DNA of 64,000 nucleotides from an uncultured archaeon (GTDB lineage Archaea; Asgardarchaeota; Thorarchaeia; Thorarchaeales; Thorarchaeaceae): the NCBI GenBank assembly GCA_964610875.1, contig CAZSWP010000017.1, forward strand, positions 4,940 to 68,939, given 5' to 3'. Shown in pieces: positions 13,004 to 61,561 of the stretch (position 1 is its first letter; each line of letters opens with the position of its first letter). A program made the translations under genes and the position numbers. A model generated the notes under the pieces. The model saw only the letters and a list, made by a program, of their open reading frames with translations, was not told the origin of the DNA and did no database searches.

Positions 13004-13880
13004 ATGACAAAAAAAACTCAATGAAGAATCGTGGGACAAACTCTCGAAGCCATATCAATCATCTAGGAGAATCTCTCTTGAAAACTACCATTACGGAGCA
13101 TACGGTCCAGGTGAAAACGAACTCAAGATAATAGGAGATGTTTCTGGATTAGATATTCTGGAGGTAGGCTGTGGTGGAGGACAGAATTCCATCGTATTAA
13201 AAAAATGGGGAGCAAAATCAGTAGTGGGTATTGATATTTCTAATAAGCAAATTGAACACGCAAAAGATTTAGCAAAACAGAACAATGTTGATGTTGTTTT
13301 CATAAAACAAGACATGGATGATTTGTCGTGTTTCGAAAACCAGAAATTCGACCTTATTGTTTCATCACATGCAATCGGTTATGCTGAAGACTTTGATAAG
13401 GTCATGAGTGAGTGCAACCGCATTCTCAGAAAAGACGGACGTATTGTTGCATGTTTTGGGCATCCCGTATGGCAGGTAATAGGAGAAGCAATGGCTAGAG
13501 AGGATTTTAGCAAAATTACCAGTTATTTCAAAAAAGATCGACTGGTTTGGGACTGGCCAGGTGCTGACAATAAACCCATAGCTACCTTTGAGGATTCCAT
13601 TTTAACAATTAGTACTATTATGAATGGGATGATAGCAGCAGGATTCAAGATAATGAGAGTAGTTGAACCACACACGTATACCAAGCAGGAGATTCAAAGA
13701 CTCCATCCTGATGCGATACCATACATAGACTATGAGCCACTAAATGAAGGATTCATTGCAACAGGTCAGCTTCTACCCAGTGCTATAATAGTATCAGCAA
13801 TAAATAATAGCATTACTTCGCTTAATACGACTGTACCTTTTGTTATTCAGAGGAAATATATACAACGAATACAAGGAAAA
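13004..13880 (+). pseudogene. Class I SAM-dependent methyltransferase paralog with a frameshifted start and no stop codon (pseudogene, sequencing error or N-terminal fusion domain)
   Basis: An RBS (GAGGA) and the ATG at 13004 are followed by an A8 run (13009..13016). After a +1 shift the frame reads ..LNEESWDKL..ENYHYGAYGPGENELKIIGDVSGLDILEVGCGGGQNS.., which is colinear with the intact paralog at 19492..20310. The frame then runs without a stop into the giant ORF. Confidence 0.55.
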
Positions 13881-26920: not shown

Positions 26921-28876
26921 TTAGCGGTTTGATTCTGTTAATATAAAGAATGTATCTGCACCAGGGAGATAGCTTCCCTTAAACAAACGACGTAGTAAGC
27001 ATATGAAAACAGAACGTTTCAAATCGATAGATTTTGCATGCTCAGTGACACGGAGTTGACCTTTCTCCATTCCTGTCTTCCTTAATTGGTCAACCCATTC
27101 AACAGTTACCACCACTCCACAAGCATCAATCAGGTATTGGCCATCTAACAGATTCGCCTCTAACTCAGATGCCAATACTGAATAGTCCATACCAAAAGCA
27201 TCAGCACGCATACCTACATCAAACACACCCCTTTGTTTTAACCTTGAACGCATGGCATCAACAAGAGCCTTTCTGCTCACAAGAACTCCTTTTGGGGTTC
27301 TAAGCGCGTTCCAACTCATTCTTGAGAGTATTCGTTGTATCTCTGTTAGATCGTAACCATGATGCTTTGAAAATGCAATAGGATTGAGTATCCCGTGTTT
27401 CTTGAATTCTTCAGATAACTCAGCACGAATAACATCGTATGGGATTAATGCCCCTTCCGAATTCATCATCGCTTCAGTTTCAATATCAGCTAGAATAGCC
27501 TCTGCTGTACCAATTTTAATGCCATAAGAGTCCATTAGACTTTGAGGATTTATTCTTTTACCAGATTCCAGTTGTGCGCGAGCATTTCTTCTAGCCCATG
27601 CCAATGAGAGATAGTCGCCATCTCTTGTTATGGTGGTACGCAGACCAAATCGTTTCATGAGAGAGAGTATGTCTAAATTGGATAGCCCCCACTTCTCTTC
27701 TGCTTCACGAATATTTACCAAACCATTTTCTCTCACAGTTTCTAAGAACCATTCTCGTAGTACGCGTAAAGAAATATAATGACCATTTGGATTCTTGCGA
27801 TATCTTTCATCATCTTTGACCAATCCGATAATTGTAGTTACAGGAACCTGGTACCTATCAGAAAAGACTTGGGGATCAATAATTCCAAGAAGCTCAATAT
27901 CATCATGAAACATGCGAGATATTTGAGACAGGGTCAGTATTGAATCATCTTCAGAGGTTATCACTCTATGTCCAGATTTTGCAAGCAATCGTAAAGCCTG
28001 TTCCTTTGTTATATGCAACTGTTCATTTAGTGTGACAGGAGAGATTAAACCATCCTCAATGAACTCGACCAATTTCTCTTCAACCAAGTGTTCAGGAACT
28101 AGATTCCCTTCTAGAGTTTTAACCAATTTCCAGTGAAGAGCAATGGCTATTTTTGTGATTTCTTGCTCTTGTATTTCAAGGCGGATTGTTTCATCAGCGG
28201 GAGAGAGATATCCTTTCTTCCTAATCTCACTCTCTAGAGACCATCGCACCCATCTTAGAGAGATTATTTTTCCATTTCTTGTTTCAAAGGCATTCCAGTT
28301 CCATGAACGAATTAATTCGAGCAATTCATCTTGCTCTACCTGAAGCCGTTGTGACTCAGTCAGTGTATCAATACGTCCCTGAAGCTGAAGTGTATCGCGT
28401 AGTTTCTCCTTGAGGTCTGGAACTAAGAGATATTCACCAGATTTTGTCCTCAGAACATCCAATTTCTCTTTCTGGCAGAGAGCTTCAACAATGTCTGCAA
28501 CTTTGTCCTCGGTGATACTCCAATTCATTGCTTCCTTACCTGGATTCAAAACATGGGAATTGACTAGTTGTTCCTTGAACTTTGTTTCCATGACAGGTAG
28601 TGAAAGGATTGTCATCCCACTAAATGAGAGAATAGCGTTTTCAGCAAGTTCAACAATTCCTAATACACTCTTTCTATCAAGGGGTTTCCGAGAGAGCTCC
28701 TGTGATGCAGTAACTACACTAATATTTGATTGAAAATCCAGAATCTGATTGAGTTTTGCAACACACTTCCTTTTGTTTTGAATACTCCAGTACGCGTATG
28801 CAACCAATGCCAGAATTGAGAGGCTTAATCCAATAAAGAGAGAAAAATAATCCTCATCTACAAAGGGCAATTGCAT
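26921..28876 (-). CDS. Membrane-anchored protein built from about 10 tandem 54-56-aa repeats (wHTH-like), function unknown
   Basis: Has an N-terminal TM helix (FSLFIGLSLSILALVAYAYW). After it, the anchor Gly recurs with a spacing of 54-56 residues (QGRID, KGYLS, DGLIS, LGIID, NGLVN, SGKRI, HGILN, RGVFD, KGQLR). It lies 20 nt downstream of the P-type ATPase gene. Confidence 0.6.
   Translation of the reverse strand: MQLPFVDEDYFSLFIGLSLSILALVAYAYWSIQNKRKCVAKLNQILDFQSNISVVTASQELSRKPLDRKSVLGIVELAENAILSFSGMTILSLPVMETKFKEQLVNSHVLNPGKEAMNWSITEDKVADIVEALCQKEKLDVLRTKSGEYLLVPDLKEKLRDTLQLQGRIDTLTESQRLQVEQDELLELIRSWNWNAFETRNGKIISLRWVRWSLESEIRKKGYLSPADETIRLEIQEQEITKIAIALHWKLVKTLEGNLVPEHLVEEKLVEFIEDGLISPVTLNEQLHITKEQALRLLAKSGHRVITSEDDSILTLSQISRMFHDDIELLGIIDPQVFSDRYQVPVTTIIGLVKDDERYRKNPNGHYISLRVLREWFLETVRENGLVNIREAEEKWGLSNLDILSLMKRFGLRTTITRDGDYLSLAWARRNARAQLESGKRINPQSLMDSYGIKIGTAEAILADIETEAMMNSEGALIPYDVIRAELSEEFKKHGILNPIAFSKHHGYDLTEIQRILSRMSWNALRTPKGVLVSRKALVDAMRSRLKQRGVFDVGMRADAFGMDYSVLASELEANLLDGQYLIDACGVVVTVEWVDQLRKTGMEKGQLRVTEHAKSIDLKRSVFICLLRRLFKGSYLPGADTFFILTESNR
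26924..28540 (-). repeat. Coding tandem repeat with a period of about 55 codons (about 165 nt), divergent copies
   Basis: I counted the spacing between conserved Gly anchors as 54, 55, 54, 55, 54, 54, 56, 55, 56 residues. Confidence 0.6.
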
Positions 28877-47155: not shown

Positions 47156-47710
47156 TCAGGATTTTCCAGTCATTTTTGCTTTCAGTGCACTGTACTTGCT
47201 TTTGACCATGCTCCACACTTTCTGACGCCGTGACACGAAAGCATTTGTATGAATTGGGCAACGGTCACCAAGCGGGCATTCATCTGAAAATCCACCATGT
47301 TCCTCAAGTGCTTTCACAAGGGCATTTTGAAGAAGTTCCTCTTCAAAATCGTTCATCACATCGCTTGTTATATGAATCCATTCGATTTCCTTGAACCTGT
47401 CCTGTTCAAGCACAGCAGATACTGCTTTGAATACTTTTTCGGCAACCTCAGGATTGTCCTCCCCCAGTCCGACAACAACGCTGTGACCAGTTGGGGTGGT
47501 TTTTGAGAACCGCATCTGAGTTGGTCCCATCTTTATTGACTCTAGAGAAAGCCCATCCCCAATTGTCGGAGGGATAGTTTCTATTGCAGAGAGAAAACCT
47601 GATAGTAATTCAGGATTCTTGAATGCAGTTTTACAAAACATTCCATAGCATTTGCTGTAAATAGGCAAGCCAGCTTCAGTATAGACCATGAGATATTCAA
47701 GGATTGGCAT
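47156..47710 (-). CDS. Longin/Roadblock-like domain protein with C-terminal Cys/His segment
   Basis: Carries MPILEYLMVYTEAGLPIYSKCYG...PELLSGFLSAIETI...GHSVVVGL, the pattern seen in archaeal roadblock/longin-like proteins. The C-terminus is CPLGDRCPIH. Confidence 0.5.
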   Translation of the reverse strand: MPILEYLMVYTEAGLPIYSKCYGMFCKTAFKNPELLSGFLSAIETIPPTIGDGLSLESIKMGPTQMRFSKTTPTGHSVVVGLGEDNPEVAEKVFKAVSAVLEQDRFKEIEWIHITSDVMNDFEEELLQNALVKALEEHGGFSDECPLGDRCPIHTNAFVSRRQKVWSMVKSKYSALKAKMTGKS

Positions 47711-49430: not shown

Positions 49431-49769
49431 TTAACCCTTTTTCGTTTTCAAGGTGCGAACGACAGTTTTCATATGTTTCTTAATGAATTTCATAAACTTG
49501 ATATCCTCAGTCAGATGAAGCTGAGTTCCATTGGAAAGAGAATTGATATCTCCATCAATCTCAATGGCTTCACCAAGGTCAATAATATCCTGTTTGAATA
49601 TCCCCTCTATTGCATGAGGAGAGAATCCTTCTTTCTTGTAAACTGGGAAAATCTGTCCTTTTGTCGCACTACCACCCATCTTTACAAGTGATAGAACCAT
49701 TAGCCAATGATGCCAAGCTAACGTATAGTTCTCAAGAAATCTCATTACTTCATCAAGCGACTTTGTCAT
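49431..49769 (-). CDS. Small hypothetical protein (possibly wHTH-like)
   Basis: 112 aa. GGGTGGA lies 8 nt upstream of the ATG. It is the last gene of the co-directional cluster. Confidence 0.45.
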   Translation of the reverse strand: MTKSLDEVMRFLENYTLAWHHWLMVLSLVKMGGSATKGQIFPVYKKEGFSPHAIEGIFKQDIIDLGEAIEIDGDINSLSNGTQLHLTEDIKFMKFIKKHMKTVVRTLKTKKG

Positions 49770-49783: not shown

Positions 49784-51175
49784 CTAATCTGTATCATTGT
49801 TTTCTTCTGCTTGACCTGTTTCTTCATCTTCTGTACTAGTATCTACTTGTTCTGTTACTTCTTTAATTGCTTCTTCATCCATACCCGCAAGATTCTTTGC
49901 CACTTCTGAAAGGTTCATGGGTCGGATTTTGTCATCCTGAATCTCAACCAGACCTGCATCAATGAATTTCTGTAGTTGTCGCTTTAATAACACCATAGGA
50001 ACACCTAGAGCTGACGATAGGTGTTGTATGGGGAACCAATGCGTCTTCCCAGCAACTACAAAATACGCTTTGAATGCGGGTTCATCCTCTGCGACTTGGT
50101 AAAGCATTTCCCAACGGGCTTGCATTTCTGCAACATCTGCTTTTGCTGACCCAAATTCCTCTTCTAATGATGTAATTTCACCTTCCAAATTTGCAATTCT
50201 GGAAGAATAGGTTATATTTTCAGATTCTATTGTTTGAATTCGTCCTTTAGATTTCGCAAGCTCATCTTGAAGAGATTGGATATACTTCTCTTTTTGAAGC
50301 GTTATCTCTTCCAATTCACTGATTCTTCCTCTTGCTTCAGCAAGCTCAGTTGATTTATGTTCGAATTCTTCCACTAAATCAGCAGCAGTATCTAGTTTTT
50401 CAATCAAGTTTCTCTGTTGTTCAATCTGAGATTGAGCTTGACTCAATTCGCCTTTGGTAGCGGATAGTTCATCGTTTCGTTCAGAAACAGTTTTTTTCGC
50501 TTCTGCAAGAGAAGTTTTTAGGTCATCAATTTCTTCCTGTAATTGAACCATTGAAACATTCTTTTGCTGAACTTGAGTTTCTAGCTCTTTTGCCTTGCTC
50601 CTCCATTTTCTTGCCTCAGCCTGTGCAAGTTCGAGATTTTTTTCGGTTTCATTAATCGAAGCATAAAGTCGCAGTAATCTCTCTTGAAGAGAACCTGTTG
50701 ATTTACCGATTGTCTTGGCAGTACCCCGACTAGCTTTAGTGAGAACATCTTCAACTTGTTCTTTTGCATCCGAAATGGCTTCTTGAATAATTTTGAGAAT
50801 CTTCTCTATGGAAAGATTTTGTTTTAGCTCCTGATTCACAATGGATACAGCACGATTAGCAAAGACGCCCAGACCAGCTCCCTTCAGTTTTTCACTTAGC
50901 CTTTGTGAGATCCCTTCCAATTGCTTTTCAATTTCTGGTTCAGTGTTACTTAGACTATCTTCAATATTGGAGAGAATATCATCCATACGAACTTTGATTC
51001 TCTCAAAGGTTTCATCGACTTGTGACATGCCTTGGTCCGAGAAGGAGGTTTCCCCTGGTTTTTCATCCTCTAAAGGAACACCTTCTTGAATTGCTTGTTC
51101 CATAAGGATACGAGTCTTTTCTTCAATATCCTCTGGACTTTCCTCTTCAGGTTGGTCCTCCTTTCGACCTGACAC
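49784..51175 (-). CDS. Long coiled-coil protein with C-terminal winged-helix-like domain and acidic ends
   Basis: Heptad-rich Q/E/K/L segments (LELAQAEARKWRSKAKELETQVQQ..., ISELEEITLQKEKYIQSLQDELAKSK...). The C-terminus is HWFPIQHLSSALGVPMVLLKRQLQKFIDAGLVEI. The GTG start is preceded by GAGGTG. Confidence 0.6.
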   Translation of the reverse strand: MSGRKEDQPEEESPEDIEEKTRILMEQAIQEGVPLEDEKPGETSFSDQGMSQVDETFERIKVRMDDILSNIEDSLSNTEPEIEKQLEGISQRLSEKLKGAGLGVFANRAVSIVNQELKQNLSIEKILKIIQEAISDAKEQVEDVLTKASRGTAKTIGKSTGSLQERLLRLYASINETEKNLELAQAEARKWRSKAKELETQVQQKNVSMVQLQEEIDDLKTSLAEAKKTVSERNDELSATKGELSQAQSQIEQQRNLIEKLDTAADLVEEFEHKSTELAEARGRISELEEITLQKEKYIQSLQDELAKSKGRIQTIESENITYSSRIANLEGEITSLEEEFGSAKADVAEMQARWEMLYQVAEDEPAFKAYFVVAGKTHWFPIQHLSSALGVPMVLLKRQLQKFIDAGLVEIQDDKIRPMNLSEVAKNLAGMDEEAIKEVTEQVDTSTEDEETGQAEENNDTD

Positions 51176-51186
51176 CTATGTGCACC

Positions 51187-51564
51187 TCAGTGCAAAATTC
51201 CACGATATCCCATAGATGTAAGTTTTGCAGCTGTTTCCTTCAACTCTTCAGAAACAGTTGCTGCTTCCTGAATTCTAGACATCAATTCTTTGCGGAATTC
51301 AATTGCTGTCAGTTCACCTTTGTCAAGCCGTTCTGTAAGAGCACTGCGTTCATCCTGAAGTTTTTCTCGTCGTTTTTGAAGTCGCTCATAGTCCGCAACT
51401 AATTTCACCAACTCACCCTGTGTCTCCGGATCAAGTTCATCCACATCAGGAGGTGTTATACCTTTCTCAGGCATCGGGGTAGATGGCGTCATAATTTCAC
51501 GTGCTTTCACAGTAGTTCGTGATTTCTTTTTCTTTCGTCTTCTCCAACTGTCAAATAGACCCAT
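51187..51564 (-). CDS. Small basic-N-terminus coiled-coil protein
   Basis: Starts MGLFDSWRRRKKKKS, then a helical LVKLVADYERLQKRREKLQDERSALTERL segment. AGGTGGAG lies 5 nt upstream. Confidence 0.55.
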   Translation of the reverse strand: MGLFDSWRRRKKKKSRTTVKAREIMTPSTPMPEKGITPPDVDELDPETQGELVKLVADYERLQKRREKLQDERSALTERLDKGELTAIEFRKELMSRIQEAATVSEELKETAAKLTSMGYRGILH

Positions 51565-51576: not shown

Positions 51577-52143
51577 TTACATGTTTTCGATTTTTTCTTG
51601 TATCTCTTTCAATTGAATTTCAAATTCCTTGCGCATTTCAGAGGCGACTCTCGCTTTATCGGCATATTCATCTGCACCAGCAGGGTCATTTAACTCCATT
51701 TCAGCAAGTTCATTCTCTTTTTCAAAAAGACGCGCAATCTTTGTCCGAATTTCATCAGCTTCTCTGAGTAATTCGTCCTTTGAAGCATCATGCGATGGTT
51801 CAATATCCTCTGAGGGTGTTTCCTCCCTTTCAATGATTACTTCATCATCTGATGTATCCTCAGCTGATTCTTTGTAGGACCTAAGACGGACAGATATACC
51901 CTGCTCCAATTCTTTCTCCAGTTTTTCCATTCGGCTTACAATATCATCCATCTTGGATTCAAATCGTTTTATCGTGACTGTCTGTCTATCAATAGTTTTG
52001 AATAACTCATTAGCAAAATCCTCAAAGTTAAGGCCATACTTGAAACTATCAAGGGTTTCTTTCATCTTCCCAATTTCTGTGATTAATCTGCGGCGTTCTT
52101 CTTCATTAACAATAGACTTGGATTCATCACTGTGTTCACTCAA
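51577..52143 (-). CDS. Acidic coiled-coil protein
   Basis: Helical and acidic throughout. I chose the TTG at 52143, 1 nt after the GTPase stop, with GAGGTGGAG upstream. The maximal ORF (to 52182) would overlap the GTPase gene by 38 nt. Confidence 0.55.
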   Translation of the reverse strand: MSEHSDESKSIVNEEERRRLITEIGKMKETLDSFKYGLNFEDFANELFKTIDRQTVTIKRFESKMDDIVSRMEKLEKELEQGISVRLRSYKESAEDTSDDEVIIEREETPSEDIEPSHDASKDELLREADEIRTKIARLFEKENELAEMELNDPAGADEYADKARVASEMRKEFEIQLKEIQEKIENM

Positions 52144-52144
52144 T

Positions 52145-53026
52145 CTACTCCACCTCAATATCTCCCACAATTCTAAAATCAATTGTTTCGAAAGCCAAAG
52201 CTTTCAGTAATTTCAACCATCTATCCCGGAAATCTCGCTGGTTTGCTTGCATGCCATAAGCAGGTACATCAAGTCGTTTTCCAACCTCTTGGGGTGATAA
52301 AGCACCCTTCAAGTCCTGTTTATTTGCGATAGCAATTGCTCTCGCATAGGGTAATTCCTGTTTCAATACAGGATATGCCACACGTTTGGTCCATGCTAGA
52401 TTTTCCTTTGTTGAATCTGCAACAATTACCACCATACTCCCAGCACGGATAATTTTTCCCCATTCTTGGACAAACCTATCCTGACCACCAAGGTCGAATA
52501 TACTGAAAACATACGGATCAAAATCTGCTTTCAATAGCGATTTGTCACCAAAGAATGTAGGCACATATTCTTGAGGAGGTCCCTGTGATGGTAATGTCGC
52601 CAGTTCAAGCAAGGTTGTTTTTCCAGTACCGCCATGCCCTGCAAGGCATAACTTGACTGGAATTCTTCCTACAATGTTCCTGAAACCTGTCTTGAAAGGT
52701 GAGAAATCTGTTGATTTCCATTCATTAGATTCTAATGTACTCTCAAATGCTGTCATGAATTTTGATACTAGATTCATTATTGCTTCTTCTACTTTGGACA
52801 ATGAAGCTTGACGATCCATGGTTACAATAAATTGTGTATCATGGCTGTTCATGTAGACATATCTGAACCGTTCGATTTCCATGGAATCAATTTTCCATTC
52901 TTGAAGTTTCTTTGCAGAAGATGATACGAGCATCATGACAGCACTGCCATCAAGATCATTATTGGGTACAATGATATCTTGAAAGAGAACTTGTCCGTCT
53001 TTAAACACATTGATCTCTCGGAGCAT
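52145..53026 (-). CDS. Longin/roadblock-like domain fused to a small GTPase (Arf/SR-beta-like G3)
   Basis: The N-terminal 120 aa (MLREINVFKDGQVLFQDIIV...FIVTMDRQASL...) are longin/roadblock-like. They are followed by G1 GHGGTGKT, G3 DLGGQ and G4 NKQD. Confidence 0.8.
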   Translation of the reverse strand: MLREINVFKDGQVLFQDIIVPNNDLDGSAVMMLVSSSAKKLQEWKIDSMEIERFRYVYMNSHDTQFIVTMDRQASLSKVEEAIMNLVSKFMTAFESTLESNEWKSTDFSPFKTGFRNIVGRIPVKLCLAGHGGTGKTTLLELATLPSQGPPQEYVPTFFGDKSLLKADFDPYVFSIFDLGGQDRFVQEWGKIIRAGSMVVIVADSTKENLAWTKRVAYPVLKQELPYARAIAIANKQDLKGALSPQEVGKRLDVPAYGMQANQRDFRDRWLKLLKALAFETIDFRIVGDIEVE

Positions 53027-53182: not shown

Positions 53183-53219
53183 CCTTAAAGAAATAAATAA
53201 GGGAGGATTGAAATCCTCC
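53183..53219 (-). terminator. Hairpin plus T-rich tract directly after the giant gene stop
   Basis: Read on the minus strand, GGAGGAT-ttca-ATCCTCC is followed by CTTATTTATTTCTTT. Confidence 0.4.
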
Positions 53220-53233
53220 AATATTCTCCAAGT

Positions 53234-56200
53234 CTATTCTTCTTCTGGTTCTTCTTCAGCTTCAGACACTGCCTCCTTTTCTTCTTCGGATTCCGATGTT
53301 TCTTCAGATTCATCCTCTACTTCCTCCAGGTCAGATTCCGATTCCTCCTCGATCTCTTCATACTCAGGAAGTGTATCGTCATCAGAACTGGTAGATTCAT
53401 CATCAATGTCTACTTCTTCATCGGTTTCGCCCATATCGGCTTCTTCAACCTCAGGTCCCTCAGCTTCAGATGAAGTCTCTTCAGGTTTCTCTGAAACCTC
53501 AGCATCAGCAGATGATGTGTCCTCAATATCCTCGGTTTCAGAATCATCAGTTTCAATTGAGGCATCGTCCGTTTCATCAATTTGCTCAGCTTCTTCAGCT
53601 TCTTCTGCTTCCTCAAGCTCAGCACCTTCAGACTCATCATCTTCAACGACTTCTTCAGCTTCAGTTTCCTCAACATCTTGTGATACTTCAGATTCATCAA
53701 CATCAGATGCTTCATCAACGGGCCTTTCTTCTACAATGGAATCGAGTTCAGCTTCTAACTCAGATTCATAATCCTCAGATATGTCCTCCTCAGGAGCTTC
53801 GTCGGCACCAATCTCATCAAGAGCGTCTAGTTCGCCCAAGAGATCATCGGTTTCTTCTGCCAGAACATCGTATTCATAGCCCGGACCAACATCAATTGCT
53901 GGAGCAGAGATATCAAGTTCAGCAAGTCCTGCTGCAAGAAGTTCAGAAATAACTTGACCCATAGACTTGATGTTCTCAACCTTCGCGGTCTTCTGATCTT
54001 CAATTGCACTGACTGCCTTATTGATCTGTTTGATGACTACAGGTATCTTCCAACGACGATAGCCTACCGCGGCACCAGCAACAGCACCGAATAATACAGT
54101 CATGTACAGGATTGTCATCAATAGAGAAACAGGAACGACTAGAAAACCAGATAACCCAATTGGACTTAGGATATCTAAAGTCTGTTCTGAGATTGTTACC
54201 TGGATAGCCACATCCGTCTTATTCTCGTACATCGGTGCAGTAGCACTGAGATATACAGAGTATGGTTCTGCACGAAGCTCACCAATCTGTTCTGTGACAA
54301 GACTGATGAGATAGTGTGAACCATTGTATGTAATTTGACCTGCTGACAGTGTATATGTAGCAATAGGAGTTGTTACACTCACATCAATAACATTGTTTGT
54401 TCCAATCGGAACTTGATTAGCTAGGTCAAAGTATTGGAACACAATCCATAGTGTACTTCCTTCCTCTGCAACCACTGAAGGTCCAGTTAGAGAGGTCCTT
54501 GCATAGATGGTCAAGCTTGGATGAATAGTTATAGTGGTATAGTTCACAAGTGTAGCAGTGATGTTGAGTTCAAGCACACCAGGGATGTAACTAAGATCGA
54601 TATCAGAGGGATCAAAGTTCAGCTGATATTGACCAGTGCCTGCTTGGTAAGTTGCAGTATAGTCAGTACCGGCATATGTCATGGTTATGGTAGCCCCCAC
54701 AAGATTGCCAGATAGACTGACTGCAGTGTCTGATATAGAGAACGTCAGCAGGATGTCAAGACCTGTTGCATCGGTATATACTGTGTAGCTTGTTGCATCT
54801 GCACTGAGTTCAGTATCTACTGTTTCGATCGTGATATCGAGTACATAATCTGGTATGGTGTAGTTCTCATTTATGACTCGGATGTAGAGTTCATACACTC
54901 CTGCAGGTACTTCTCCCGCATTTATGACGACGAAATAGTCATCATTGTCATCATAGAATGTCAAAGGATGGAGCGTTATGTATCCACTCCAGAGATAGAA
55001 CACATCCGCAAACTCAATTGGGACATTTCCTCTGTAAATATCATTGACTCCGACACGGACCTCGAATGTGTTTGACCACTTTACTGTGATGGAATCATCA
55101 CTGGGCATTGTGAGTTCATCAGGAATAATTACTCCCTCAATTGGATTGACAATTACACTCGTTGTATTGAAGCTGTCAACATAGTTCGGTAGAGTATAGT
55201 TCAAAGTAAGAACATACCCCTCATCCCGGGCTGCGAACCATAAACTAGATGTGAAATTAACTCTGAATGTTCCATTCTGATAGTTTATCATATTCTCGGA
55301 ATACGGTCCATAGTATACCGTGATTGATGCACTCTCCCATATCATACCTCCGTGCAGTGCATCGTAGAGTGTAGCAGTGATAAAGATATTATCAGACCAA
55401 TAGACATCCTCAACTACGTCTATTAAGAGAGAAGTATCGGTCTCTCGCATCAACACGAATACGGTTTCTGGAATATCGTGTGTCTGAAATCCTTCAAGGA
55501 AGATATCAATTTGAATGATGTAGAAACTCGCACTCACAGCAGCTGTCATTCCAAGAGTCCTAGTATCAATCAATAGACTGTAGGTGCCATTCTCATGGTT
55601 AAACAAGCCCATTATTTCTACAGCAGGATTGACAATTTGAGTTATTGAACTATCATATGTTTCAATTCCATCCCCAGTCAAAGTATTATTCCAGAAGAAG
55701 CGAATCTCGAATATGTCCGCATAGTATTGTTCAAAGTATTGCTGTTCAAGGATAATCTCATTTGGTACTGCAAGAATCCTCACAAAGATTGTTGTTACAT
55801 CGGTGGTTGCTCCTGCATCAGTTGCAGTAATAATAATCTCGTAGAGTTCAGATTGTGGTACCGCATCAAACGCATTCAATGAGATATTGTAAAATCCACT
55901 GCCTTGTCCATCCAAACCACCTTCAAGGTCTACAATGGACTCAAGATACCAGTCATAGCTGATTGTTGCTGAATCCACAGGTGTAGTTGTCCTTGATTGG
56001 TCCCATAAGAAGACCTCGAGTACAAACGATTCGGTCCAATATACCTCAAGAGGATTCTCAGAGGAACCAAATTCGGTCTCAATGAGTAATGGTACACGTA
56101 TATTAACTGTCAGCTGGAATGCTGCATTATCGTGGTTATCTTTTGAGAATGTTATATCCAAGACGTAGCTACCAGATTCAAGGTTAGTACCCAACGATAT

Positions 56201-59200
56201 TGAGTACTCCCCATCGCCCATATATGCTACATTAATTGAGTCTGTCCAGTTGTGTGTATATGACGCTCCAGATAATGGAACAGAACCTGCAGTTCGTTCA
56301 TAAAATATCAAGAAATTAGCTGTTCCCAACCAATCAACTGTGATATCACTAGACCCAGTGACACCCATCGTTATGGGAGCTGGAGACACAGTTAGCAGAC
56401 TTGCTAAAGCTTTTGTGGCTTGAGCATAGTTTGCTTTGGAACATGTGATAGTTAAGTTCCAATCACCAACTGGAAGTAAATCACTTGAGAATGTATAGGT
56501 AAATGTACCACCTGAGGCAGAAAGTGTCTTCGTTGCATTGAGATATGACACACCTGCATCAGTGTACCATCTTAGAACCACTGTAACACTGGAAAGTCCA
56601 GGATTGGTTGTGTTGTCTGGATCGAAAATGTAAGTGAATGTGATATCCTGAGTCGTTCCTACATTCCAATCATAACCTGAAACTGGTGTGATGATTACCT
56701 GCATTGGAATTTCTTCTACAGTTATATCACCAGTGATTGATTGACTGATATAGTTCTGTTTCTCCAAGCTGATAATCAATGTGTAGAAATCAACATTGAG
56801 TTGGTTTAAGACACTCTGTGGAAGAATGAACACATCTCCGCTTGGATTAAGGTCACCAGAGGCAATTGTTGTTGATCCTCGTTTGATAGTATATGTATAG
56901 ATGTCTAAATCTGTCACATTCACATTATTGGTTGTATCCTCTAGCCAGAACTGGTAATCATTATGAGACCCATAGTAATCAACTATCGAGGTTGTTTCAG
57001 ATCCATCATCTGTCAAAGCATTTTGAACTGTGACATAGAGAGTGATTGGCGCTGGGTCATCATAGGTATCAGTATGAGCGCTCACCCGTATTGTATATGG
57101 AGTTTCAGAAGCATTCATCAACCAATAGTCAGTATCAATAATGATTGTGAAATTGATAGTTCCATCATTGGTTACATAGAAGTACCCTGAGTTATTCCAA
57201 GTACCTGAACCAATAAATGTGGATTCGAAGAAGATACTGAAGTTGACCCAGGTAGTGACATAGGAAGATATCTGACTTGTATCATTATCACCATCTCTAT
57301 CATAATATCCCACAATAGCAGTGGCATTCCTTCCCCACCGTACATTGAGGAAATATGCAGTAGAGTTGAGTTCGGTATACTGCTCATTATATGTAGGTGC
57401 TATGATGTAAATAACATTCTCATAGGTCCAATCAAAGTCACATTTTACTATGACAGATGATTCGGACTGATCGCCTGAAATGACGTCCACAGTGTATGAT
57501 AGAGAATATGGACTACTCATGTTTCCATGAATGTAGAAGAATGTGACCTGACCTGAACTATTAGTGTTTCCTTGAGCAATAAGACCAACACCCACTAGAG
57601 TTACGTTTACCTGAGCATTTTGAACAACTGCTTCAGTTCCTTCCTGTCTTACTTCAATGTTTAGTCTAGTGATAGCAAGATTTACCGTGAAAGTAATCTC
57701 ACCCTGTACATTTGTCTGAATGATATCTGCAGTATTATTGCGAGCGGTCTGAGTCAGAGGATAGTCATCGTCCTTCCAGACATCCATCTGCCATGTACCA
57801 TTCACAATACGATAGAACTCAAAGTACCCATTCTCATCAGAAGTTGCAGTAATAGAGTATGCATTCTCATTTAGTGTGTTATTGATTTTAATGGTGGCAC
57901 CTTCCACAGGTTGGTCATCCCAGCTATTAACGTAGATGTTCATGGTAACAAGTGGTAGTACCCAATCGGGATGGCTGAAAGAACCTCCTATAAACTCAGT
58001 CTGACTTATTGTCCAAGCACCGAAATTGGTCATATCATCGTAAGTATAGCTGTCTACTGGACCATCATATCTTACAAAGACATCGTAATCACCAACAGGC
58101 ACGCGATAGAAATACGCCCAACCAGTACTGTTCACTACATCATAGTCTGTGAAGTTAGCTGTATTGCCATCCGGAGATAATCTTACGGTCGTTGTTTCGT
58201 CTGGATTATCATTCATAGAATCGGACATTAGATCATCAAAGTGAATTTCAATTGACGCTAGGTCTAGAGTTATTGTCACAGGTGTAACAGAACCAGTGAT
58301 TGCTTGGTTTGTGGAGTCTGTGCTTTCCCAGACCTGTGAGGAAGATAACCAAGTTGCAGTAATGTTTGTACGGATATCATAGGTTATGTTGCTCAGACCT
58401 TCGAAGATTATCAAACCATTTGCATCAGTAGTGCCAGTCCGAGTTCTTCCATTGTCATCTTCCCAAACATCACCAGTTGTATTGTATAGTGTAACGGTGG
58501 CGCCTTCAACAGGTACACCATCTAGGTCTACTACAGTTACATCCAACTCGAAGAGGTTTACCTCCTCTCCAAGGTCAATTGAGAATCCATTCTGGTCATT
58601 TTCAGGAGAATAAGCTGGTACCATCCATCCAAATCCCGTATCAGAAGTTGGATAATACGGAGATGTGGTTGAGAATTTGCCAACATCAACAACGCCGACT
58701 GTTGCGTTTGATGTGATGTGATAGAGTGTCATGCTTGTAGACCAAGGCATGAAATATGTCATTCCACCCTTAGGAATCTCAAGTGTTTGGCCGTTATAGC
58801 CTTCAATGTCCACTTCTGCATTCTCAAGAGCAACAATCATGAATTTGTAACTTCTAGTTCCCCAGAGTTTGTAATTACTACCGTAACGATCACCAGTGAT
58901 TGTGGGCACCCAATCCCCTGCATCTGTTGCAGAAGTTGGATTGTAGAGTCCCTCTACCATAATCATGTAATTCTCCTCTGCTACAATGTGGAGGATATCT
59001 TCAGTATTGGTATCACTTGCCGTGCCACGAGCGATAAGCTGTGAGCTGTTTGCCGCTATAGTAAGAGTTCCACCAAAGACAAAACCAGAACCACTATTTC
59101 GATACCAATCTACTTCAACAGTGGTATCGTTCAGGTTTGTGACTCGTGTGTAGTCGCTACTATGTCCCATATCAATGGTATAGAACTCTTCTCCAGCCAA

Positions 59201-60397
59201 GTCACCATTTATTGCAGGATAGAATGCCCAAATATCTCGTGCATGACTGCAATCCTGATCACCCATTCGTGTTGAAACTGCTTTTGTAGCATTCACATAT
59301 GTTATTGATGTATAGATGTAGTCACCTTTGTAGATGTACTCACCAGCATCCAGAACTGCGGGAAATGATGCAGCACTATTGTTGATGTATTTCCAACCTG
59401 TATCCGCCTCCATGCTTGATGTCCAGACATATACCTCTGTATCGTCTTCGTGTGCCTGAATCCAGTACTTCCCTTCATTTCGTGAATCAAACCCTTCAAC
59501 GCCACCAAGTACCCACTCGGTCGCAGTTCCAGAACCCAATTCCGAAACTCCTGGGAACCAATCATTGATAGCTGAATTTGAACCCTCATCACCCTGGCCT
59601 ACATGCACAGCCATTGGATAATTTGAATACACGGCATAGTAACCTTGGAACAAAGAGTACGAGTATGGTTCTGGTTCATATCGTGCTTGTTCATATGCAC
59701 TAAGAGTGCCATTGGGAACATTTGTGGTATACACACTGCCACTTGTGCCAGCCCATCTGTCATCCAAGTTTCTTGGATCATCCCATACCTGATTATTTGT
59801 ATCATACTTCTCAATGTTGTATTGATTATTATCATAGTATGAGATTAGACTCAATAGAGAGAAAGTGTAACTCTTGTAGATGAAGGGATAGAAATCGGGA
59901 TAACTGACTGACCCAACATCTTCCTTAGCATAGTAAATGTAGTAATTGGGTTCTCTCTGGCTTTGACTAACATTCACAAGAAATGTTACCCTTGTTGAAA
60001 GAATGTAAGTACCAGTTGCATCATAAGTAGTATTCCAAATCTGGAAAGGCTGGGGGGTCCAATCAGGATCATCATAATATAGAACTCGAATAGAACCGTC
60101 GTAACAATGTCCTGCTTCAAACTCGAGGAAGAGATGTACTGGTGTATTGATTCTATCCGACACACCGGGTTCTGTGAAATTGTAGTATCTACGATAAATG
60201 TAGGAACTATTCCACCATTTTGCCAAGTCTTGTTCATTGGCAGCTAGTTCCACGTCACCATTCTTCATCGTTAAATCATCACTAGTGTCATCTGCAAAAG
60301 ATGACGGGTTCATCGTCGCTGGCTCTGCTCCATTCAGAGGGAGGAGTAGCATAACAGCAAATACAGCTAGAATTCCAATCTTTACTATTCTATTCAA
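53234..60397 (-). CDS. Giant (2387 aa) type-I membrane surface protein with a beta-rich ectodomain, one TM helix and a 275-aa cytoplasmic tail
   Basis: The TTG start is preceded by GGAGGTGGA. The signal peptide is MNRIVKIGILAVFAVMLLLPLNGAEP. There are CarboxypepD_reg-like units (PVEGATVTLYN..TDANGLIIFEGL) and many roughly 100-aa beta modules. The TM helix is LVVPVSLLMTILYMTVLFGAVAGAAVG, followed by YRRWK. Confidence 0.85.
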   Translation of the reverse strand: MNRIVKIGILAVFAVMLLLPLNGAEPATMNPSSFADDTSDDLTMKNGDVELAANEQDLAKWWNSSYIYRRYYNFTEPGVSDRINTPVHLFLEFEAGHCYDGSIRVLYYDDPDWTPQPFQIWNTTYDATGTYILSTRVTFLVNVSQSQREPNYYIYYAKEDVGSVSYPDFYPFIYKSYTFSLLSLISYYDNNQYNIEKYDTNNQVWDDPRNLDDRWAGTSGSVYTTNVPNGTLSAYEQARYEPEPYSYSLFQGYYAVYSNYPMAVHVGQGDEGSNSAINDWFPGVSELGSGTATEWVLGGVEGFDSRNEGKYWIQAHEDDTEVYVWTSSMEADTGWKYINNSAASFPAVLDAGEYIYKGDYIYTSITYVNATKAVSTRMGDQDCSHARDIWAFYPAINGDLAGEEFYTIDMGHSSDYTRVTNLNDTTVEVDWYRNSGSGFVFGGTLTIAANSSQLIARGTASDTNTEDILHIVAEENYMIMVEGLYNPTSATDAGDWVPTITGDRYGSNYKLWGTRSYKFMIVALENAEVDIEGYNGQTLEIPKGGMTYFMPWSTSMTLYHITSNATVGVVDVGKFSTTSPYYPTSDTGFGWMVPAYSPENDQNGFSIDLGEEVNLFELDVTVVDLDGVPVEGATVTLYNTTGDVWEDDNGRTRTGTTDANGLIIFEGLSNITYDIRTNITATWLSSSQVWESTDSTNQAITGSVTPVTITLDLASIEIHFDDLMSDSMNDNPDETTTVRLSPDGNTANFTDYDVVNSTGWAYFYRVPVGDYDVFVRYDGPVDSYTYDDMTNFGAWTISQTEFIGGSFSHPDWVLPLVTMNIYVNSWDDQPVEGATIKINNTLNENAYSITATSDENGYFEFYRIVNGTWQMDVWKDDDYPLTQTARNNTADIIQTNVQGEITFTVNLAITRLNIEVRQEGTEAVVQNAQVNVTLVGVGLIAQGNTNSSGQVTFFYIHGNMSSPYSLSYTVDVISGDQSESSVIVKCDFDWTYENVIYIIAPTYNEQYTELNSTAYFLNVRWGRNATAIVGYYDRDGDNDTSQISSYVTTWVNFSIFFESTFIGSGTWNNSGYFYVTNDGTINFTIIIDTDYWLMNASETPYTIRVSAHTDTYDDPAPITLYVTVQNALTDDGSETTSIVDYYGSHNDYQFWLEDTTNNVNVTDLDIYTYTIKRGSTTIASGDLNPSGDVFILPQSVLNQLNVDFYTLIISLEKQNYISQSITGDITVEEIPMQVIITPVSGYDWNVGTTQDITFTYIFDPDNTTNPGLSSVTVVLRWYTDAGVSYLNATKTLSASGGTFTYTFSSDLLPVGDWNLTITCSKANYAQATKALASLLTVSPAPITMGVTGSSDITVDWLGTANFLIFYERTAGSVPLSGASYTHNWTDSINVAYMGDGEYSISLGTNLESGSYVLDITFSKDNHDNAAFQLTVNIRVPLLIETEFGSSENPLEVYWTESFVLEVFLWDQSRTTTPVDSATISYDWYLESIVDLEGGLDGQGSGFYNISLNAFDAVPQSELYEIIITATDAGATTDVTTIFVRILAVPNEIILEQQYFEQYYADIFEIRFFWNNTLTGDGIETYDSSITQIVNPAVEIMGLFNHENGTYSLLIDTRTLGMTAAVSASFYIIQIDIFLEGFQTHDIPETVFVLMRETDTSLLIDVVEDVYWSDNIFITATLYDALHGGMIWESASITVYYGPYSENMINYQNGTFRVNFTSSLWFAARDEGYVLTLNYTLPNYVDSFNTTSVIVNPIEGVIIPDELTMPSDDSITVKWSNTFEVRVGVNDIYRGNVPIEFADVFYLWSGYITLHPLTFYDDNDDYFVVINAGEVPAGVYELYIRVINENYTIPDYVLDITIETVDTELSADATSYTVYTDATGLDILLTFSISDTAVSLSGNLVGATITMTYAGTDYTATYQAGTGQYQLNFDPSDIDLSYIPGVLELNITATLVNYTTITIHPSLTIYARTSLTGPSVVAEEGSTLWIVFQYFDLANQVPIGTNNVIDVSVTTPIATYTLSAGQITYNGSHYLISLVTEQIGELRAEPYSVYLSATAPMYENKTDVAIQVTISEQTLDILSPIGLSGFLVVPVSLLMTILYMTVLFGAVAGAAVGYRRWKIPVVIKQINKAVSAIEDQKTAKVENIKSMGQVISELLAAGLAELDISAPAIDVGPGYEYDVLAEETDDLLGELDALDEIGADEAPEEDISEDYESELEAELDSIVEERPVDEASDVDESEVSQDVEETEAEEVVEDDESEGAELEEAEEAEEAEQIDETDDASIETDDSETEDIEDTSSADAEVSEKPEETSSEAEGPEVEEADMGETDEEVDIDDESTSSDDDTLPEYEEIEEESESDLEEVEDESEETSESEEEKEAVSEAEEEPEEE
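53237..53866 (-). other. Extreme acidic (D/E/S/T) low-complexity segment of the cytoplasmic tail
   Basis: The last 210 or so codons are almost entirely E/D/S/T/A (..EETEAEEVVEDDESEGAELEEAEEAEEAEQIDETDD..EEEPEEE). Confidence 0.8.
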
Positions 60398-61561
60398 CTA
60401 TTCCACCTCCATCATTGCAGTAGCGTTGCTTGGATGAAACTTCTTCAGTACTTCCAGATAGTGAATGGCTTGTCGACTGGGGACCTCTTCATCATTGTAC
60501 AAGTCGACGGTTCTGCTTACTAACCATTCAGGATAGACTGTAGCAACCTCTGGACTGCATTTCAGCATCACATGTTGTCTACCATCCTCATCGTTAATTT
60601 TGAGGATAATATTGTGTTTCTCTAGTTTGGACAATTGACTTCTTAGACCGGACTTGTTTGTATCTAAAAGTTCTTGGAGATTCTCAACAAGTCGAGGACC
60701 ATCTCTTAGAATCTCAATTATGTCATACGCTTCGAAATCAAGAAGGATTTTTGCTAATTGATCGGCTTCTGTCCAGATTGTTTCAGATAGATCTTTCCTG
60801 AGTCTGGCAATATAGTCACGATGATAACGCTTAGTTGACTGTAAGAACTGCTCAGAAACTTCCTGAGGTAACTTACCACTGCGAATTGCTCTGATCGTTT
60901 CACGCGATATTTCTCTCAAGATGAAGAGAGCACGTGTCAGATATATCACTTCGGAGGATAATCCCTCAACCCAGCCAGTTGCAATGATACCCATCTTCAC
61001 TAGTGGTCTGAGTACCATGTCAACGTCAATCTTCTTTCCAACCTCTTCAAAGATTATCTGTTCAAGGTCAGAAGCTTGTAGGCTACCGTTCCTCATGAGT
61101 ACTTGTAGAATTGCACGTCTCACAGGGTCACTCAATACCGAAGCCTGTCGCTGCTCGGGTGTCATCTGAGTGTATCGAGCAATCTGTTTGTAGAGCTTTG
61201 GTACCATCTCAGTATATTTGTCATCGTCAGCATTCAGGAAAATCTGGGTTGCAATCTCAGGTAGTGCATCTTTGTAGATATCTGGGTCCTCACTTGGTTC
61301 AAGAACAAGGAATACCATAGAGGGTTGTCCCTTTAGATGCATATTCAAACCACCATAATATACTGCGAGTTTGAACTCATCAAACGCAAGTGAACTGAAT
61401 CCAGGTTTTTGTGATTCTTCGGTCTCACCTAATGTCGCAATACCATAGACCCGCATACTTGTTGTCGGGTCTAATCCCACCTTGAGCTTCTTTGGTGTCT
61501 TAGAGGTGACAACAGGACCAAGCTCATCGTCCCATTTCAAAACAGCCAATCCTTCAGGCAT
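60398..61561 (-). CDS. Longin/uDENN-like N-terminal domain plus two winged-helix (ArsR-like) domains, hypothetical
   Basis: The N-terminus is LAVLKWDDELGPVVTSKTP...FKLAVYYGG...SMVFLVLEP. The wHTH-like segments are RRAILQVLMRNGSLQASDLEQI and YDIIEILRDGPRLVENLQELLDTNKSGLRSQLSKLEKHNII. Its stop abuts the giant gene start. Confidence 0.6.
   Translation of the reverse strand: MPEGLAVLKWDDELGPVVTSKTPKKLKVGLDPTTSMRVYGIATLGETEESQKPGFSSLAFDEFKLAVYYGGLNMHLKGQPSMVFLVLEPSEDPDIYKDALPEIATQIFLNADDDKYTEMVPKLYKQIARYTQMTPEQRQASVLSDPVRRAILQVLMRNGSLQASDLEQIIFEEVGKKIDVDMVLRPLVKMGIIATGWVEGLSSEVIYLTRALFILREISRETIRAIRSGKLPQEVSEQFLQSTKRYHRDYIARLRKDLSETIWTEADQLAKILLDFEAYDIIEILRDGPRLVENLQELLDTNKSGLRSQLSKLEKHNIILKINDEDGRQHVMLKCSPEVATVYPEWLVSRTVDLYNDEEVPSRQAIHYLEVLKKFHPSNATAMMEVE

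Follow-up and report, generated by a model that had tools for sequence, protein, structure and literature searches.

The longin-GTPase locus and the questions it raises

What kind of molecular switch is encoded by a gene in which a longin-like domain precedes a small GTPase on one chain, and which proteins might it work with? The gene lies in a window of 64,000 nucleotides, the whole stretch of thorarchaeal DNA analysed here. Debates on the origin of eukaryotic membrane trafficking and nutrient signalling turn largely on Asgard small GTPases and longin/roadblock proteins. To our knowledge, almost none of these GTPases or longin/roadblock proteins has an identified partner.

The initial annotation of this locus had claimed a single polypeptide at 52145-53026. 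A 293-aa reading frame is indeed present, on the minus strand; the plus-strand reading of the same interval was rejected, its translation being riddled with stops. The gene and its two domains are:

52145..53026, minus strand: fusion gene of a longin and an Arf-like GTPase domain, 293 aa (open reading frame, homologues, third-codon-position bias)
52667..53026, minus strand: longin-type domain, residues 1-120, beta-beta-alpha-beta-beta-beta-alpha-alpha (AlphaFold2, Foldseek)
52187..52660, minus strand: Arf-like G domain, residues 123-280 (Pfam, PDB sequence and profile comparisons)

A conserved and already described architecture

The protein has at least 142 homologues; identity among the 120 listed is 75-88% across nearly the whole length, and every one of these 120 carries a precomputed Arf annotation. 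Mean column identity in the alignment is 84%, and nucleotide differences between the gene and its orthologues fall mostly at third codon positions (e.g. 48/16/184 at positions 1/2/3). The fusion reading frame is a genuine gene of Asgard archaea and is strongly conserved, with strong purifying selection on both the longin and the G domain. The RNA runs searched for the gene sequence gave no match.

The full-length fusion occurs at one locus per genome in ∼39 Thorarchaeota species genomes, nearly every one searched. Divergent full-length members are found at L040 (56% identity), in Atabeyarchaeum (L042, 36%) and in LC30 (L043, 38%), and the fusion exists in at least three Asgard lineages beyond Thorarchaeota, including Atabeyarchaeia. 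Since it is thus present in four Asgard lineages, the fear that the G domain might have no fusion partners elsewhere is not borne out.

Compared with Rag/Gtr the domains stand in reversed order, as had been pointed out, with the longin N-terminal and the G domain after it. The novelty which this reversed cis fusion seemed to imply falls, because three papers already report Asgard longin-GTPase fusions: Liu et al. 2020 (10.1101/2020.10.19.343400), Tran et al. 2024 (PMC10933270), who describe both longin-GTPase and RB-GTPase fusions, and Zhu et al. 2025 (PMC11914678), whose AArfs carry “additional domains such as longin”. The fusion itself is no discovery, the architecture being already described for Asgard archaea. 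These published catalogues deal mainly with MK-D1 and Heimdall-group genomes; their main texts do not characterise the Thorarchaeota family and mention neither its single full-length locus per genome nor its conserved neighbourhood. In the text of Zhu et al. [quoted passage not shown]

The N-terminal domain and the question of self-regulation

In the AlphaFold2 model of residues 1-120 by themselves (pLDDT 89.5, pTM 0.84) strands span residues 2-9, 12-18, 46-51, 54-61 and 64-71, and helices residues 27-39, 76-99 and 110-120. This agrees with the beta-beta-alpha-beta-beta-beta-alpha order predicted earlier, plus one extra helix. The strand and helix order is that expected of a longin, with no helix ahead of beta1; residue 2 already belongs to the first beta strand, and the chain does not have the Roadblock/LC7 (MglB-type) topology, alpha-beta-beta-alpha-beta-beta-beta with an N-terminal helix. 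Foldseek recovered longin/roadblock-superfold structures only, not an unrelated fold. The best PDB matches were VAMP7 longin structures (TMq 0.67-0.71), further ones being AP sigma/mu, Sec22b, zeta-COP and the SRX domain of SRalpha in complex with SRbeta (1nrj_A, E=4.2e-4, TMq 0.56), while LAMTOR/roadblock structures showed lower query coverage (TMq 0.41-0.54). Because the N-terminal helix is absent and an additional C-terminal helix is present, the fold is longin-type and not roadblock/MglB-type, so that only the first half of the original label “longin/roadblock-like” stands.

By sequence the domain has few relatives. Pfam gave no significant longin family (best Intu_longin_3, E=0.18) and no match to Robl_LC7 at E<=1; a paralog in L043 (28% identical) has a weak match to Fuz_longin_1 (E=0.0018), still under the cutoff. 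A search of a library of 1.84 billion representatives returned only the domain's own family and the multi-PAS protein P0126 (E=2.5e-4), which was rejected as spurious, the match consisting of five short stretches. The sequence family of this domain is very narrow.

The longin might regulate the G domain of its own chain in cis, whether as GAP, as GEF or as an intramolecular lock, making the protein a self-regulating GTPase. Known GAPs and GEFs have longin/roadblock domains as their catalytic cores (PMC12290439, PMC10933270), and several charged longin residues are invariant (R3, R53, R55, D71 and R72), three of them (R3, D71 and R72) even in relatives of 36-57% identity. The two-domain AlphaFold2 model of the full protein (pTM 0.80) also hints at a fixed arrangement of longin and G domain, suggesting a defined mutual orientation. 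GAP longins, however, are defined by a GP motif ahead of beta2 and an arginine finger, which in NPRL2 is R78 in the beta4-beta5 loop (PMC12290439). Both marks of this FLCN/NPRL2/SMCR8 type are absent here, the beta1-beta2 loop being K-D/E-G-Q (KDGQ in our protein) and the beta4-beta5 loop NSHDTQ, and the known longin/roadblock regulators act in trans as dimers. We consider self-regulation unlikely.

In phmmer the last helix of the domain (residues 110-120, FKTGFRNIVG) is matched to residues 9-18 of Arf1. The helix is amphipathic but not free, and comparing its hydrophobic moment with those of Arf N-terminal helices brought no further information. In Arf such a helix is set free when GTP binds (the interswitch toggle); in our model switch I and the interswitch are poorly defined.

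The G domain is Arf-like

The three motifs named in the initial annotation (GHGGTGKT, DLGGQ and NKQD) are found at residues 130-137, 178-182 and 235-238, together with a switch I:

52616..52639, minus strand: G1/P-loop GHGGTGKT, residues 130-137 (direct reading; invariant across orthologues)
52553..52564, minus strand: switch I/G2 VPT157F, residues 155-158 (alignment with Arf1 IPT48IG)
52481..52495, minus strand: G3 DLGGQ, residues 178-182, with catalytic Gln182 (direct reading, Arf1 alignment)
52313..52324, minus strand: G4 NKQD, residues 235-238 (direct reading)

G1 reads GHGGTGKT in Thorarchaeota and in the homologue P0124, with H131 and G132 invariant, and GFGGVGKT in the homologue P0125. 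In switch I, P156, T157 and F158 are invariant, as are D178-L-G180-G181 in G3; W189 follows Gln182 by seven residues, and the counterpart in Arf1 is Q71/W78. A G5-like MQAN with invariant A261 occupies residues 259-262. The protein thus carries the motifs of a Ras-superfamily small GTPase (G1, the G2 Thr, G3, G4 and a G5-like motif) and, judged by sequence, its G domain has every residue needed for GTP binding and hydrolysis (P-loop, Thr157, Gln182 and NKQD).

Of the Pfam families searched for, Arf (PF00025) was found with 45.5 bits (E 7.6e-12, gathering cutoff 22.3), ahead of Roc (25.8 bits) and Ras (22.8 bits), and P0125 scored 49.7 bits against the same Arf model. SRPRB reached 15.8 bits, under its cutoff of 25, and Gtr1_RagA gave no match at E<=1; the general model TIGR00231 small_GTP (41.2 bits) fell slightly short of its cutoff of 42.5. 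The best PDB sequence matches were to Asgard ArfR (8oun/8oum) and next to ARF1 (E 1e-10 to 4e-10). The G-domain profile scored highest with ARF1 (42.6 bits), followed by RhoA (26.3), Sar1 (23.2), RagA (18.6), MglA (15.0), Gtr1 (13.6) and, lowest, SR-beta (11.2). The G domain appears from these comparisons closest to Arf and far from Rag, SRbeta and MglA. As SRPRB stayed below its cutoff and the SR-beta reference scored lowest, it is Arf-like and not SR-beta-like, which upholds the Arf part of the earlier “Arf/SR-beta-like” reading of G3 and removes the other. Zhu et al. (PMC11914678) require Leu-Asp at G1 positions 2-3 and Gly at G3 position 3 of an Arf. Our protein has the glycine, but His-Gly in G1, and may belong to a separate “ArfL” group.

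A full-length Foldseek search was rejected as a means of telling GTPase families apart, since TMt was ∼0.6 for Rho, Arf and Ras alike; it cannot separate them because the region around switch I (residues 146-172) is poorly modelled (pLDDT <50). Its top match was an engineered LOV2-Rac1 fusion, an artefact due to the two-domain shape.

The protein might instead be a domain-swapped, longin-dimerised nutrient-signalling GTPase of the Rag/Gtr kind. DxGGQ is common to RagA and Gtr1. Liu et al. named Asgard longin-GTPase fusions “Rag family” and reported an NPRL2-like family in most Thor MAGs (10.1101/2020.10.19.343400), and Tran et al. place such fusions as Rag-like yet close to Arf (PMC10933270). 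The scores given above nevertheless speak for ARF1 over RagA and Gtr1, G4 is the Arf-type NKQD and not HKxD, and the one full-length copy in each genome does not fit Rags, which form obligate dimers from two paralogs. This reading, which we regard as improbable, would also have the neighbouring gene product w387 as an NPRL2/C9orf72-like GAP partner, a point taken up below.

Gene neighbourhood and candidate partners

The neighbours of the fusion gene are:

60398..61561, minus strand: w387, 387 aa, with an N-terminal W10-D11-x-x-L-G15-P16 motif and C-terminal winged helices
53234..60397, minus strand: giant 2387-aa protein, long cluster form only (open reading frame, domain matches, comparison of loci)
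53202..53219, minus strand: terminator-like hairpin GGAGGATT-tcaa-AATCCTCC with a T-rich tail, between the giant and the GTPase gene
51577..52182, minus strand: CC201, coiled-coil-like protein (only weak coiled-coil family matches)
51187..51564, minus strand: CC125, short coiled-coil protein whose N-terminus has the conserved motif MG[LI]FD-x-WRRKK (invariant core)
49784..51175, minus strand: CC463, long coiled-coil protein of the long cluster form, its C-terminus winged-helix-like
49431..49769, minus strand: w112, small conserved protein at the cluster end in most Thorarchaeota loci and L040

That the fusion gene stands at the head of a coiled-coil run was borne out by the hairpin upstream and by gaps of only 1-14 nt downstream. 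The 214-nt intergenic RNA between the giant and the GTPase gene folds with z = -3.76, and the hairpin probably acts as a terminator. A sigma-70 promoter scan was disregarded as irrelevant to an archaeal host. The true start of CC201 is likely a TTG at 52143, one base past the GTPase stop, which would give a protein of 188 aa; its orthologues have 183-205 aa and start right behind the GTPase stop.

A core module of w387, the longin-GTPase and CC125 is kept in both a long and a short cluster form, to which the long form adds the giant surface protein and two further coiled-coil proteins. The same two neighbours are retained across lineages in which the proteins are only 33-38% identical. This neighbourhood, conserved across several Asgard lineages, is the new part of our analysis and points to likely partners; the conserved neighbours therefore provide a short list of candidate interactors of the longin-GTPase. 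The CC125 N-terminus (MG[LI]FD-WRRKK) is a plausible membrane anchor, and the C-terminal part of CC463 is conserved in L042/L043.

The giant protein starts with a signal-like segment, carries Ig/CarboxypepD_reg-like repeats and ends in a hydrophobic segment and an acidic tail; weak homologues lie upstream in L042/L043. In the long form the GTPase gene lies directly after the gene for this secreted/membrane protein, and such an arrangement, together with the fold match to 1nrj_A, could speak for a cis module resembling SRX-SRbeta that targets or secretes the giant protein. About a dozen Thorarchaeota loci, however, have the GTPase without the giant gene, the protein has no N-terminal membrane anchor (no hydrophobic N-terminal segment), and its G3 is DLGGQ as against DLPGH in SRbeta. 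With the low SRPRB and SR-beta scores added, we consider a targeting function of this kind very unlikely.

The most consistently linked neighbour is w387. Its homologues adjoin the GTPase gene in most Thorarchaeota loci on a long enough contig, and also in L042/L043 (33-34% identity, E ∼1e-75). W10, D11 and G15 are invariant, while P16 is replaced by T in the Atabeyarchaeum and LC30 homologues. The spacing of WDxxLGP is identical to that of W33-D34...G38-P39 in C9orf72, which is what would recommend w387 as the GAP partner of a Rag-like GTPase. With hhalign against the C9orf72 and NPRL2 N-termini the motif came out in register, but at non-significant probabilities of 1.5% and 0.2%, and w387 lacks an Arg finger. 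The w387 profile recognised only the C-terminal winged helices (HTH_20, 2e-8, ArsR-type) in PDB and Pfam and no NPR2, folliculin or C9orf72, and hhalign of our longin against w387 gave no signal. As homologue searches returned only the names “hypothetical”, ArsR or wHTH, and the family is otherwise annotated as ArsR/wHTH regulator, w387 may simply be the transcription factor of the cluster; it is also a candidate regulator or partner longin.

We propose, as a moderately probable explanation of the whole, that the fusion protein is an Arf-like GTP switch of the ArfL/ArfR type in which the longin domain would stand where Arf has its N-terminal membrane helix. The longin would be a platform for docking or dimerisation and not a GAP built into the chain, a role that longin/roadblock domains also fill in Rag, Ragulator, TRAPP, SRX-SRbeta and adaptor complexes. 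Assembly with the products of the conserved neighbours, w387 and CC125, would be governed by the nucleotide state of the G domain, and in the long cluster form two coiled-coil proteins and the giant membrane-anchored surface protein with its acidic cytoplasmic tail may join this assembly.

A more speculative extension, in our view quite improbable, is that w387 (as a C9orf72-like longin/winged-helix protein), the longin-GTPase and CC125 (as a membrane-anchored coiled-coil protein) represent an archaeal precursor of those eukaryotic GAP complexes, built on longin heterodimers, that act on Arf or Rag, the GTPase chain and w387 each contributing one half of a longin dimer. If true, it would tell which Asgard GTPases partner GP-motif longins, a question raised in PMC12290439, and the long form would couple the switch to the giant surface protein via its acidic cytoplasmic tail.

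Comparison with known systems

C9orf72-SMCR8, FLCN-FNIP and NPRL2-NPRL3 (PMC12290439) are brought to mind by the C9orf72-spaced WDxxLGP at the start of the N-terminal domain of w387, and by the Arf-like nature of the GTPase to which w387 is linked, CSW being a GAP for Arf. Differently from these GAP complexes, neither w387 nor the longin-GTPase has an arginine finger at the canonical position, and the similarity of w387 is not significant. MglA/MglB likewise pair a small GTPase with a roadblock-superfold regulator. There the regulator, MglB, is a protein apart, a roadblock dimer that has an N-terminal helix, and MglA reaches only 15 bits with our G-domain profile. SRX bound to SRbeta (PDB 1nrj) combines a longin-like domain with an Arf-related GTPase as two separate proteins, whereas here the pair would sit on one chain and the G domain is not SRbeta by sequence.

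Rag/Gtr proteins resemble the fusion in the covalent joining of a small GTPase to a longin/roadblock-superfold domain and in DxGGQ in G3. Their roadblock is C-terminal, while our protein has an N-terminal longin, NKQD instead of HKxD and no Gtr1_RagA match. Closer are Asgard ArfR/AArf (8oum, 8oun; Vargova et al., Zhu et al.) and Arf1, which have in common with it DxGGQ, the W seven residues on, NKQD and GKTT at the end of the P-loop. The fusion differs from them by lacking Leu-Asp in G1 and a free N-terminal amphipathic helix, the latter because the longin domain precedes the G domain. The Asgard longin-GTPase fusions share the N-terminal longin on an Arf/Rag-like GTPase, Arf-like by sequence. 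According to Tran et al. the GTPase and longin/RB genes of MK-D1 generally lie outside operons (PMC10933270), and the longin-GTPase family with its conserved neighbours is an exception to this pattern.

The longin-GTPase gene

The gene and the motifs read in its product are:

52145-53026 (-), longin-GTPase ORF, 293 aa, ATG start
residues 130-137, G1 motif GHGGTGKT
residues 178-182, G3 motif DLGGQ
residues 235-238, G4 motif NKQD
elsewhere in the protein, switch-I VPT157F and a G5-like MQAN

The initial annotation placed a single fusion polypeptide at 52145-53026, and an ORF of this kind is indeed found there, on the minus strand; the plus strand was ruled out as coding, its translation being full of stops. 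The ORF is a genuine gene, given its homologs, their conserved alignment and the pattern of third-codon-position differences. A search of 5.8 billion proteins yielded at least 142 homologs; among the 120 matches listed, identity is 75-88% over essentially the full length, and the named ones are almost all Thorarchaeota. Mean column identity in a 40-sequence alignment is 84%, with both halves conserved, and nucleotide differences from orthologs pile up at third codon positions (e.g. 48/16/184). In the sequencing-run search the sequence was present solely in DNA metagenomes, from microbial mat, and in none of the RNA runs.

The N-terminal domain adopts a longin arrangement

Residues 1-120 were modelled by AlphaFold2 with high confidence, both within the full-length protein (pLDDT 79.9, pTM 0.80; pLDDT >90 over most of the domain) and alone (pLDDT 89.5, pTM 0.84). 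The predicted elements are β(2-9), β(12-18), α(27-39), β(46-51), β(54-61), β(64-71), α(76-99) and α(110-120). Since no helix precedes the first strand and an additional helix follows at the C-terminus, the modelled arrangement is that of a longin and not of a roadblock/MglB domain, a distinction set out in PMC10933270. Foldseek against the PDB matched only proteins of the longin/roadblock superfold: the best full-coverage matches were the VAMP7 longin (TMq 0.67-0.71), Sec22b, zeta-COP, the SRX domain of SRalpha and the N-terminal domains of AP-1/2/3 sigma and mu, and LAMTOR and bacterial roadblock proteins matched at lower coverage. Of the longin/roadblock-like domain first proposed, the longin part is thus upheld and the roadblock/MglB type is dropped on element order.

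In sequence the domain forms a very narrow family. No Pfam family recognised it (best Intu_longin_3, E=0.18), and phmmer against 1.84 billion representatives retrieved only Thorarchaeota cluster fragments, the two divergent full-length relatives P0124 and P0125, and one PAS protein, which was rejected as spurious.

A longin acting in cis on its own G domain would make the protein self-regulating, as the initial annotation suggested. The pTM of the two-domain model is compatible with this, as is the fact that R3, D71 and R72 stay unchanged down to the most divergent relatives, but the canonical marks of GAP-type longins are absent from the domain, and we regard self-regulation as unlikely.

An Arf-like G domain

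The G1, G3 and G4 motifs stand as originally described, and together they clearly predict a conserved GTP switch that is complete and includes the catalytic glutamine. The HMM searches proposed at the outset gave Arf as the best Pfam family (45.5 bits, cutoff 22.3), with marginal matches to Roc, Ras and GTP_EFTU. Among solved structures, the sequences that match best are Asgard ArfR 8oun and 8oum (E 1e-10 and 1e-9); eukaryotic Arf1, Arl8, Arl1 and Arl6 come next. A profile of the G-domain family was also scored against reference GTPases, with approximate scores: ARF1 42.6 bits, ARF6 41.2, RhoA 26.3, Sar1 23.2, Ran 22.7, Rab1 21.5, RagA 18.6, H-Ras 18.2, MglA 15.0, Gtr1 13.6 and SRbeta 11.2. 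A Rag-like protein, for which Gtr1_RagA gave no Pfam match at E<=1 and RagA scored far below ARF1, is therefore improbable. An SRX/SRbeta-like one is more doubtful still and can be given very little weight, as SRPRB (15.8 bits) fell below its cutoff of 25 and SRbeta scored lowest of the references.

Like Arf1, the protein has DxGGQ with a Trp seven residues past the Gln (Q182/W189 vs Q71/W78); NKQD and GKTT are further Arf-like details. However, G1 positions 2-3, where Leu-Asp is Arf-specific (Zhu et al., PMC11914678), are His-Gly in this family and Phe-Gly in P0125, and a longin domain replaces the free N-terminal amphipathic helix of canonical Arf. Strict Arf membership is doubtful for both reasons. 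AArf/ArfR are described as true Arf relatives, apart from "ArfL", an older Asgard group that falls elsewhere (Zhu et al., PMC11914678; Vargova et al., 10.1101/2024.02.28.582541) and that Zhu et al. put close to Rag and Rup2. Because of the G1 motif, and because Thorarchaeota are not among the groups for which Zhu et al. describe widespread AArfs, we lean towards ArfL rather than AArf/ArfR. The whole-model structure search did not separate GTPase families, since switch I and the interswitch (146-172) were modelled at pLDDT <50.

Distribution and gene neighbourhood

When GTDB species were scanned with one genome each, about 39 MAGs, Thorarchaeota or Thorarchaeota-like, proved to encode the full-length fusion, with one locus per genome. 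Divergent full-length members are found in an archaeon (L040, 56% identity), Candidatus Atabeyarchaeum (L042, 36%) and Asgard MAG LC30 (L043, 38%). In the LC30 MAG the ortholog is followed, about 2 kb further downstream, by a second longin-GTPase, a paralog (L043 12788-13804; 338 aa, 28% identity), which matches Arf and, weakly, Gtr1_RagA and Fuz_longin_1 (E=0.0018). The pattern scan also reached, through the common DxGGQ region, a stand-alone 199-aa Ras/Rab-like GTPase (L044 9932-10531; Ras 93 bits) in the Thorarchaeota genome (isolate BC) that also carries locus L021.

The neighbouring features in the window are:

51187-51564 (-), CC125, with a conserved N-terminal MG[LI]FD-x-WRRKK
53202-53219 (-), terminator-like GC-rich hairpin with T-rich tail, directly past the stop of the giant gene and before the GTPase gene
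53234-60397 (-), giant protein, 2387 aa, from ORF and domain search
60398-61561 (-), w387, 387 aa, with an N-terminal WDxxLGP domain and winged helices

When ORFs from all 44 loci were compared with the genes of the window, two layouts emerged in Thorarchaeota. The long form, as in the window, comprises w387, a giant protein of 2100-2500 aa, the GTPase, CC201, CC125, CC463 and w112. The short form, found in about a dozen species (L022-L025, L027, L029-L032, L034-L036), consists of w387, the GTPase, CC125 and w112, without the giant protein, CC201 and CC463. Atabeyarchaeum and LC30 have, in this order, a large protein, a homolog of w387 (33-34% identity, E about 1e-75), the GTPase, a CC125-like gene and a protein that resembles CC463 over the winged-helix part at the C-terminus of the latter. 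L040 retains the GTPase, the coiled-coil genes and w112. From these gene sets, the invariant core is w387, the longin-GTPase and CC125.

To call the GTPase gene the head of a coiled-coil sub-operon is fair for the long form: the genes 3′ of it are separated by 1-14 nt, given a TTG start of CC201 at 52143, and the terminator-like hairpin lies upstream. This start is likely the true one, as the resulting length agrees with orthologs. The 214-nt spacer between the giant and GTPase genes folds far better than shuffles (z=-3.76). Upstream w387, however, is the more faithful companion of the GTPase.

The CC125 N-terminal motif is kept in Thorarchaeota and in L040 (11435-11770) and may form an amphipathic, polybasic membrane-binding segment; this Arf-style segment sits on a short coiled-coil protein adjoining an Arf-like GTPase without a free helix. 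The giant protein begins with a signal-like segment and contains Ig/CarboxypepD_reg-like repeats; towards its C-terminus it has a hydrophobic stretch, and it ends in a low-complexity, very acidic tail of roughly 300 residues. Opposite-strand ORFs over this tail, 53208-53771 (+) and 53470-53952 (+), are Ser-rich and Gln/Leu-rich and most likely artefacts of repeat composition.

Elsewhere in the window, a 184-aa protein (MPILEYLMVYTEAGLPIYSK..., 47156-47710 (-)), whose gene lies in synteny a few genes further downstream in many Thorarchaeota loci, combines a weak Fuz_longin_1 match (E=0.1) with invariant C21, C26, C145 and C151 (CPLGDxCP); it is a candidate for another longin-like, possibly metal-binding protein. 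A further eukaryote-like signature protein, of 651 aa (26921-28876 (-)), matches the E3 UFM1-protein ligase 1 family at 35.7 bits against a cutoff of 23.2. The 1799-aa ORF at 13224-18623 (+) has its start within a methyltransferase domain, of which profile positions 22-94 are matched, and bears bacterial TSP3 repeats near residue 1441; it may have a miscalled start or join two genes.

A possible C9orf72-like motif in w387

The C-terminal two-thirds of w387 contain two or three winged-helix modules (HTH_20 2e-8), while the N-terminal domain of ~125 residues had no database match. The latter opens LAVLKW10D11DELG15P16VV; no family member departs from W10, D11 or G15, and P16 gives way to Thr in the two most divergent ones. 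The spacing equals that of W33-D34...G38-P39 in C9orf72. According to PMC12290439, this WD/GP motif lines the catalytic pocket when C9orf72 and SMCR8 form their Arf-GAP complex, and the GP motif is confined to longins of the GAP type, of which Asgard archaea have some. An NPRL2-like family is reported in "most Thor MAGs" (Liu et al., 10.1101/2020.10.19.343400). Profile searches of w387 against PDB and Pfam returned nothing for a C9orf72-type link, and hhalign aligned the motif in register with those of C9orf72 and NPRL2, though with probabilities of only 1.5% and 0.2%. An arginine in the β4-β5 loop, the site of NPRL2 R78, is absent from both w387 and the longin of the GTPase. The likeness is unproven; relatives of w387 are named ArsR/wHTH regulator or hypothetical, and w387 may simply regulate the cluster.

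Proposed function and relation to known systems

The conserved, motif-complete G domain with its catalytic Gln sits on a longin fold, and its gene is linked to neighbours that stay the same from locus to locus. On balance we slightly favour a picture in which the longin domain would serve as a docking or dimerisation platform and the nucleotide state would gate assembly with w387 and the coiled-coil proteins at a membrane. The initial observation is confirmed and its interpretation supported in part. Its contrast with Rag GTPases, whose roadblock is C-terminal, and with MglB, which acts in trans, was correct, but the reversed cis fusion is no novelty. It is a documented Asgard theme: longin-GTPase fusions are reported by Liu et al. 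(10.1101/2020.10.19.343400) and Tran et al. (PMC10933270), the latter describing G domains that are Rag-like yet close to Arf, and Arf-type GTPases with an added longin domain by Zhu et al. (PMC11914678). The protein is a new, uncharacterised family member of known architecture. Its value lies mainly in the uncommon stability of its gene neighbourhood, from which partners of an Asgard small GTPase can be chosen for testing, and secondly in the unproven C9orf72-like motif of the adjacent w387. The platform role favoured here for its longin domain would resemble that in Rag-Ragulator, TRAPP, adaptor complexes and SRX-SRbeta.
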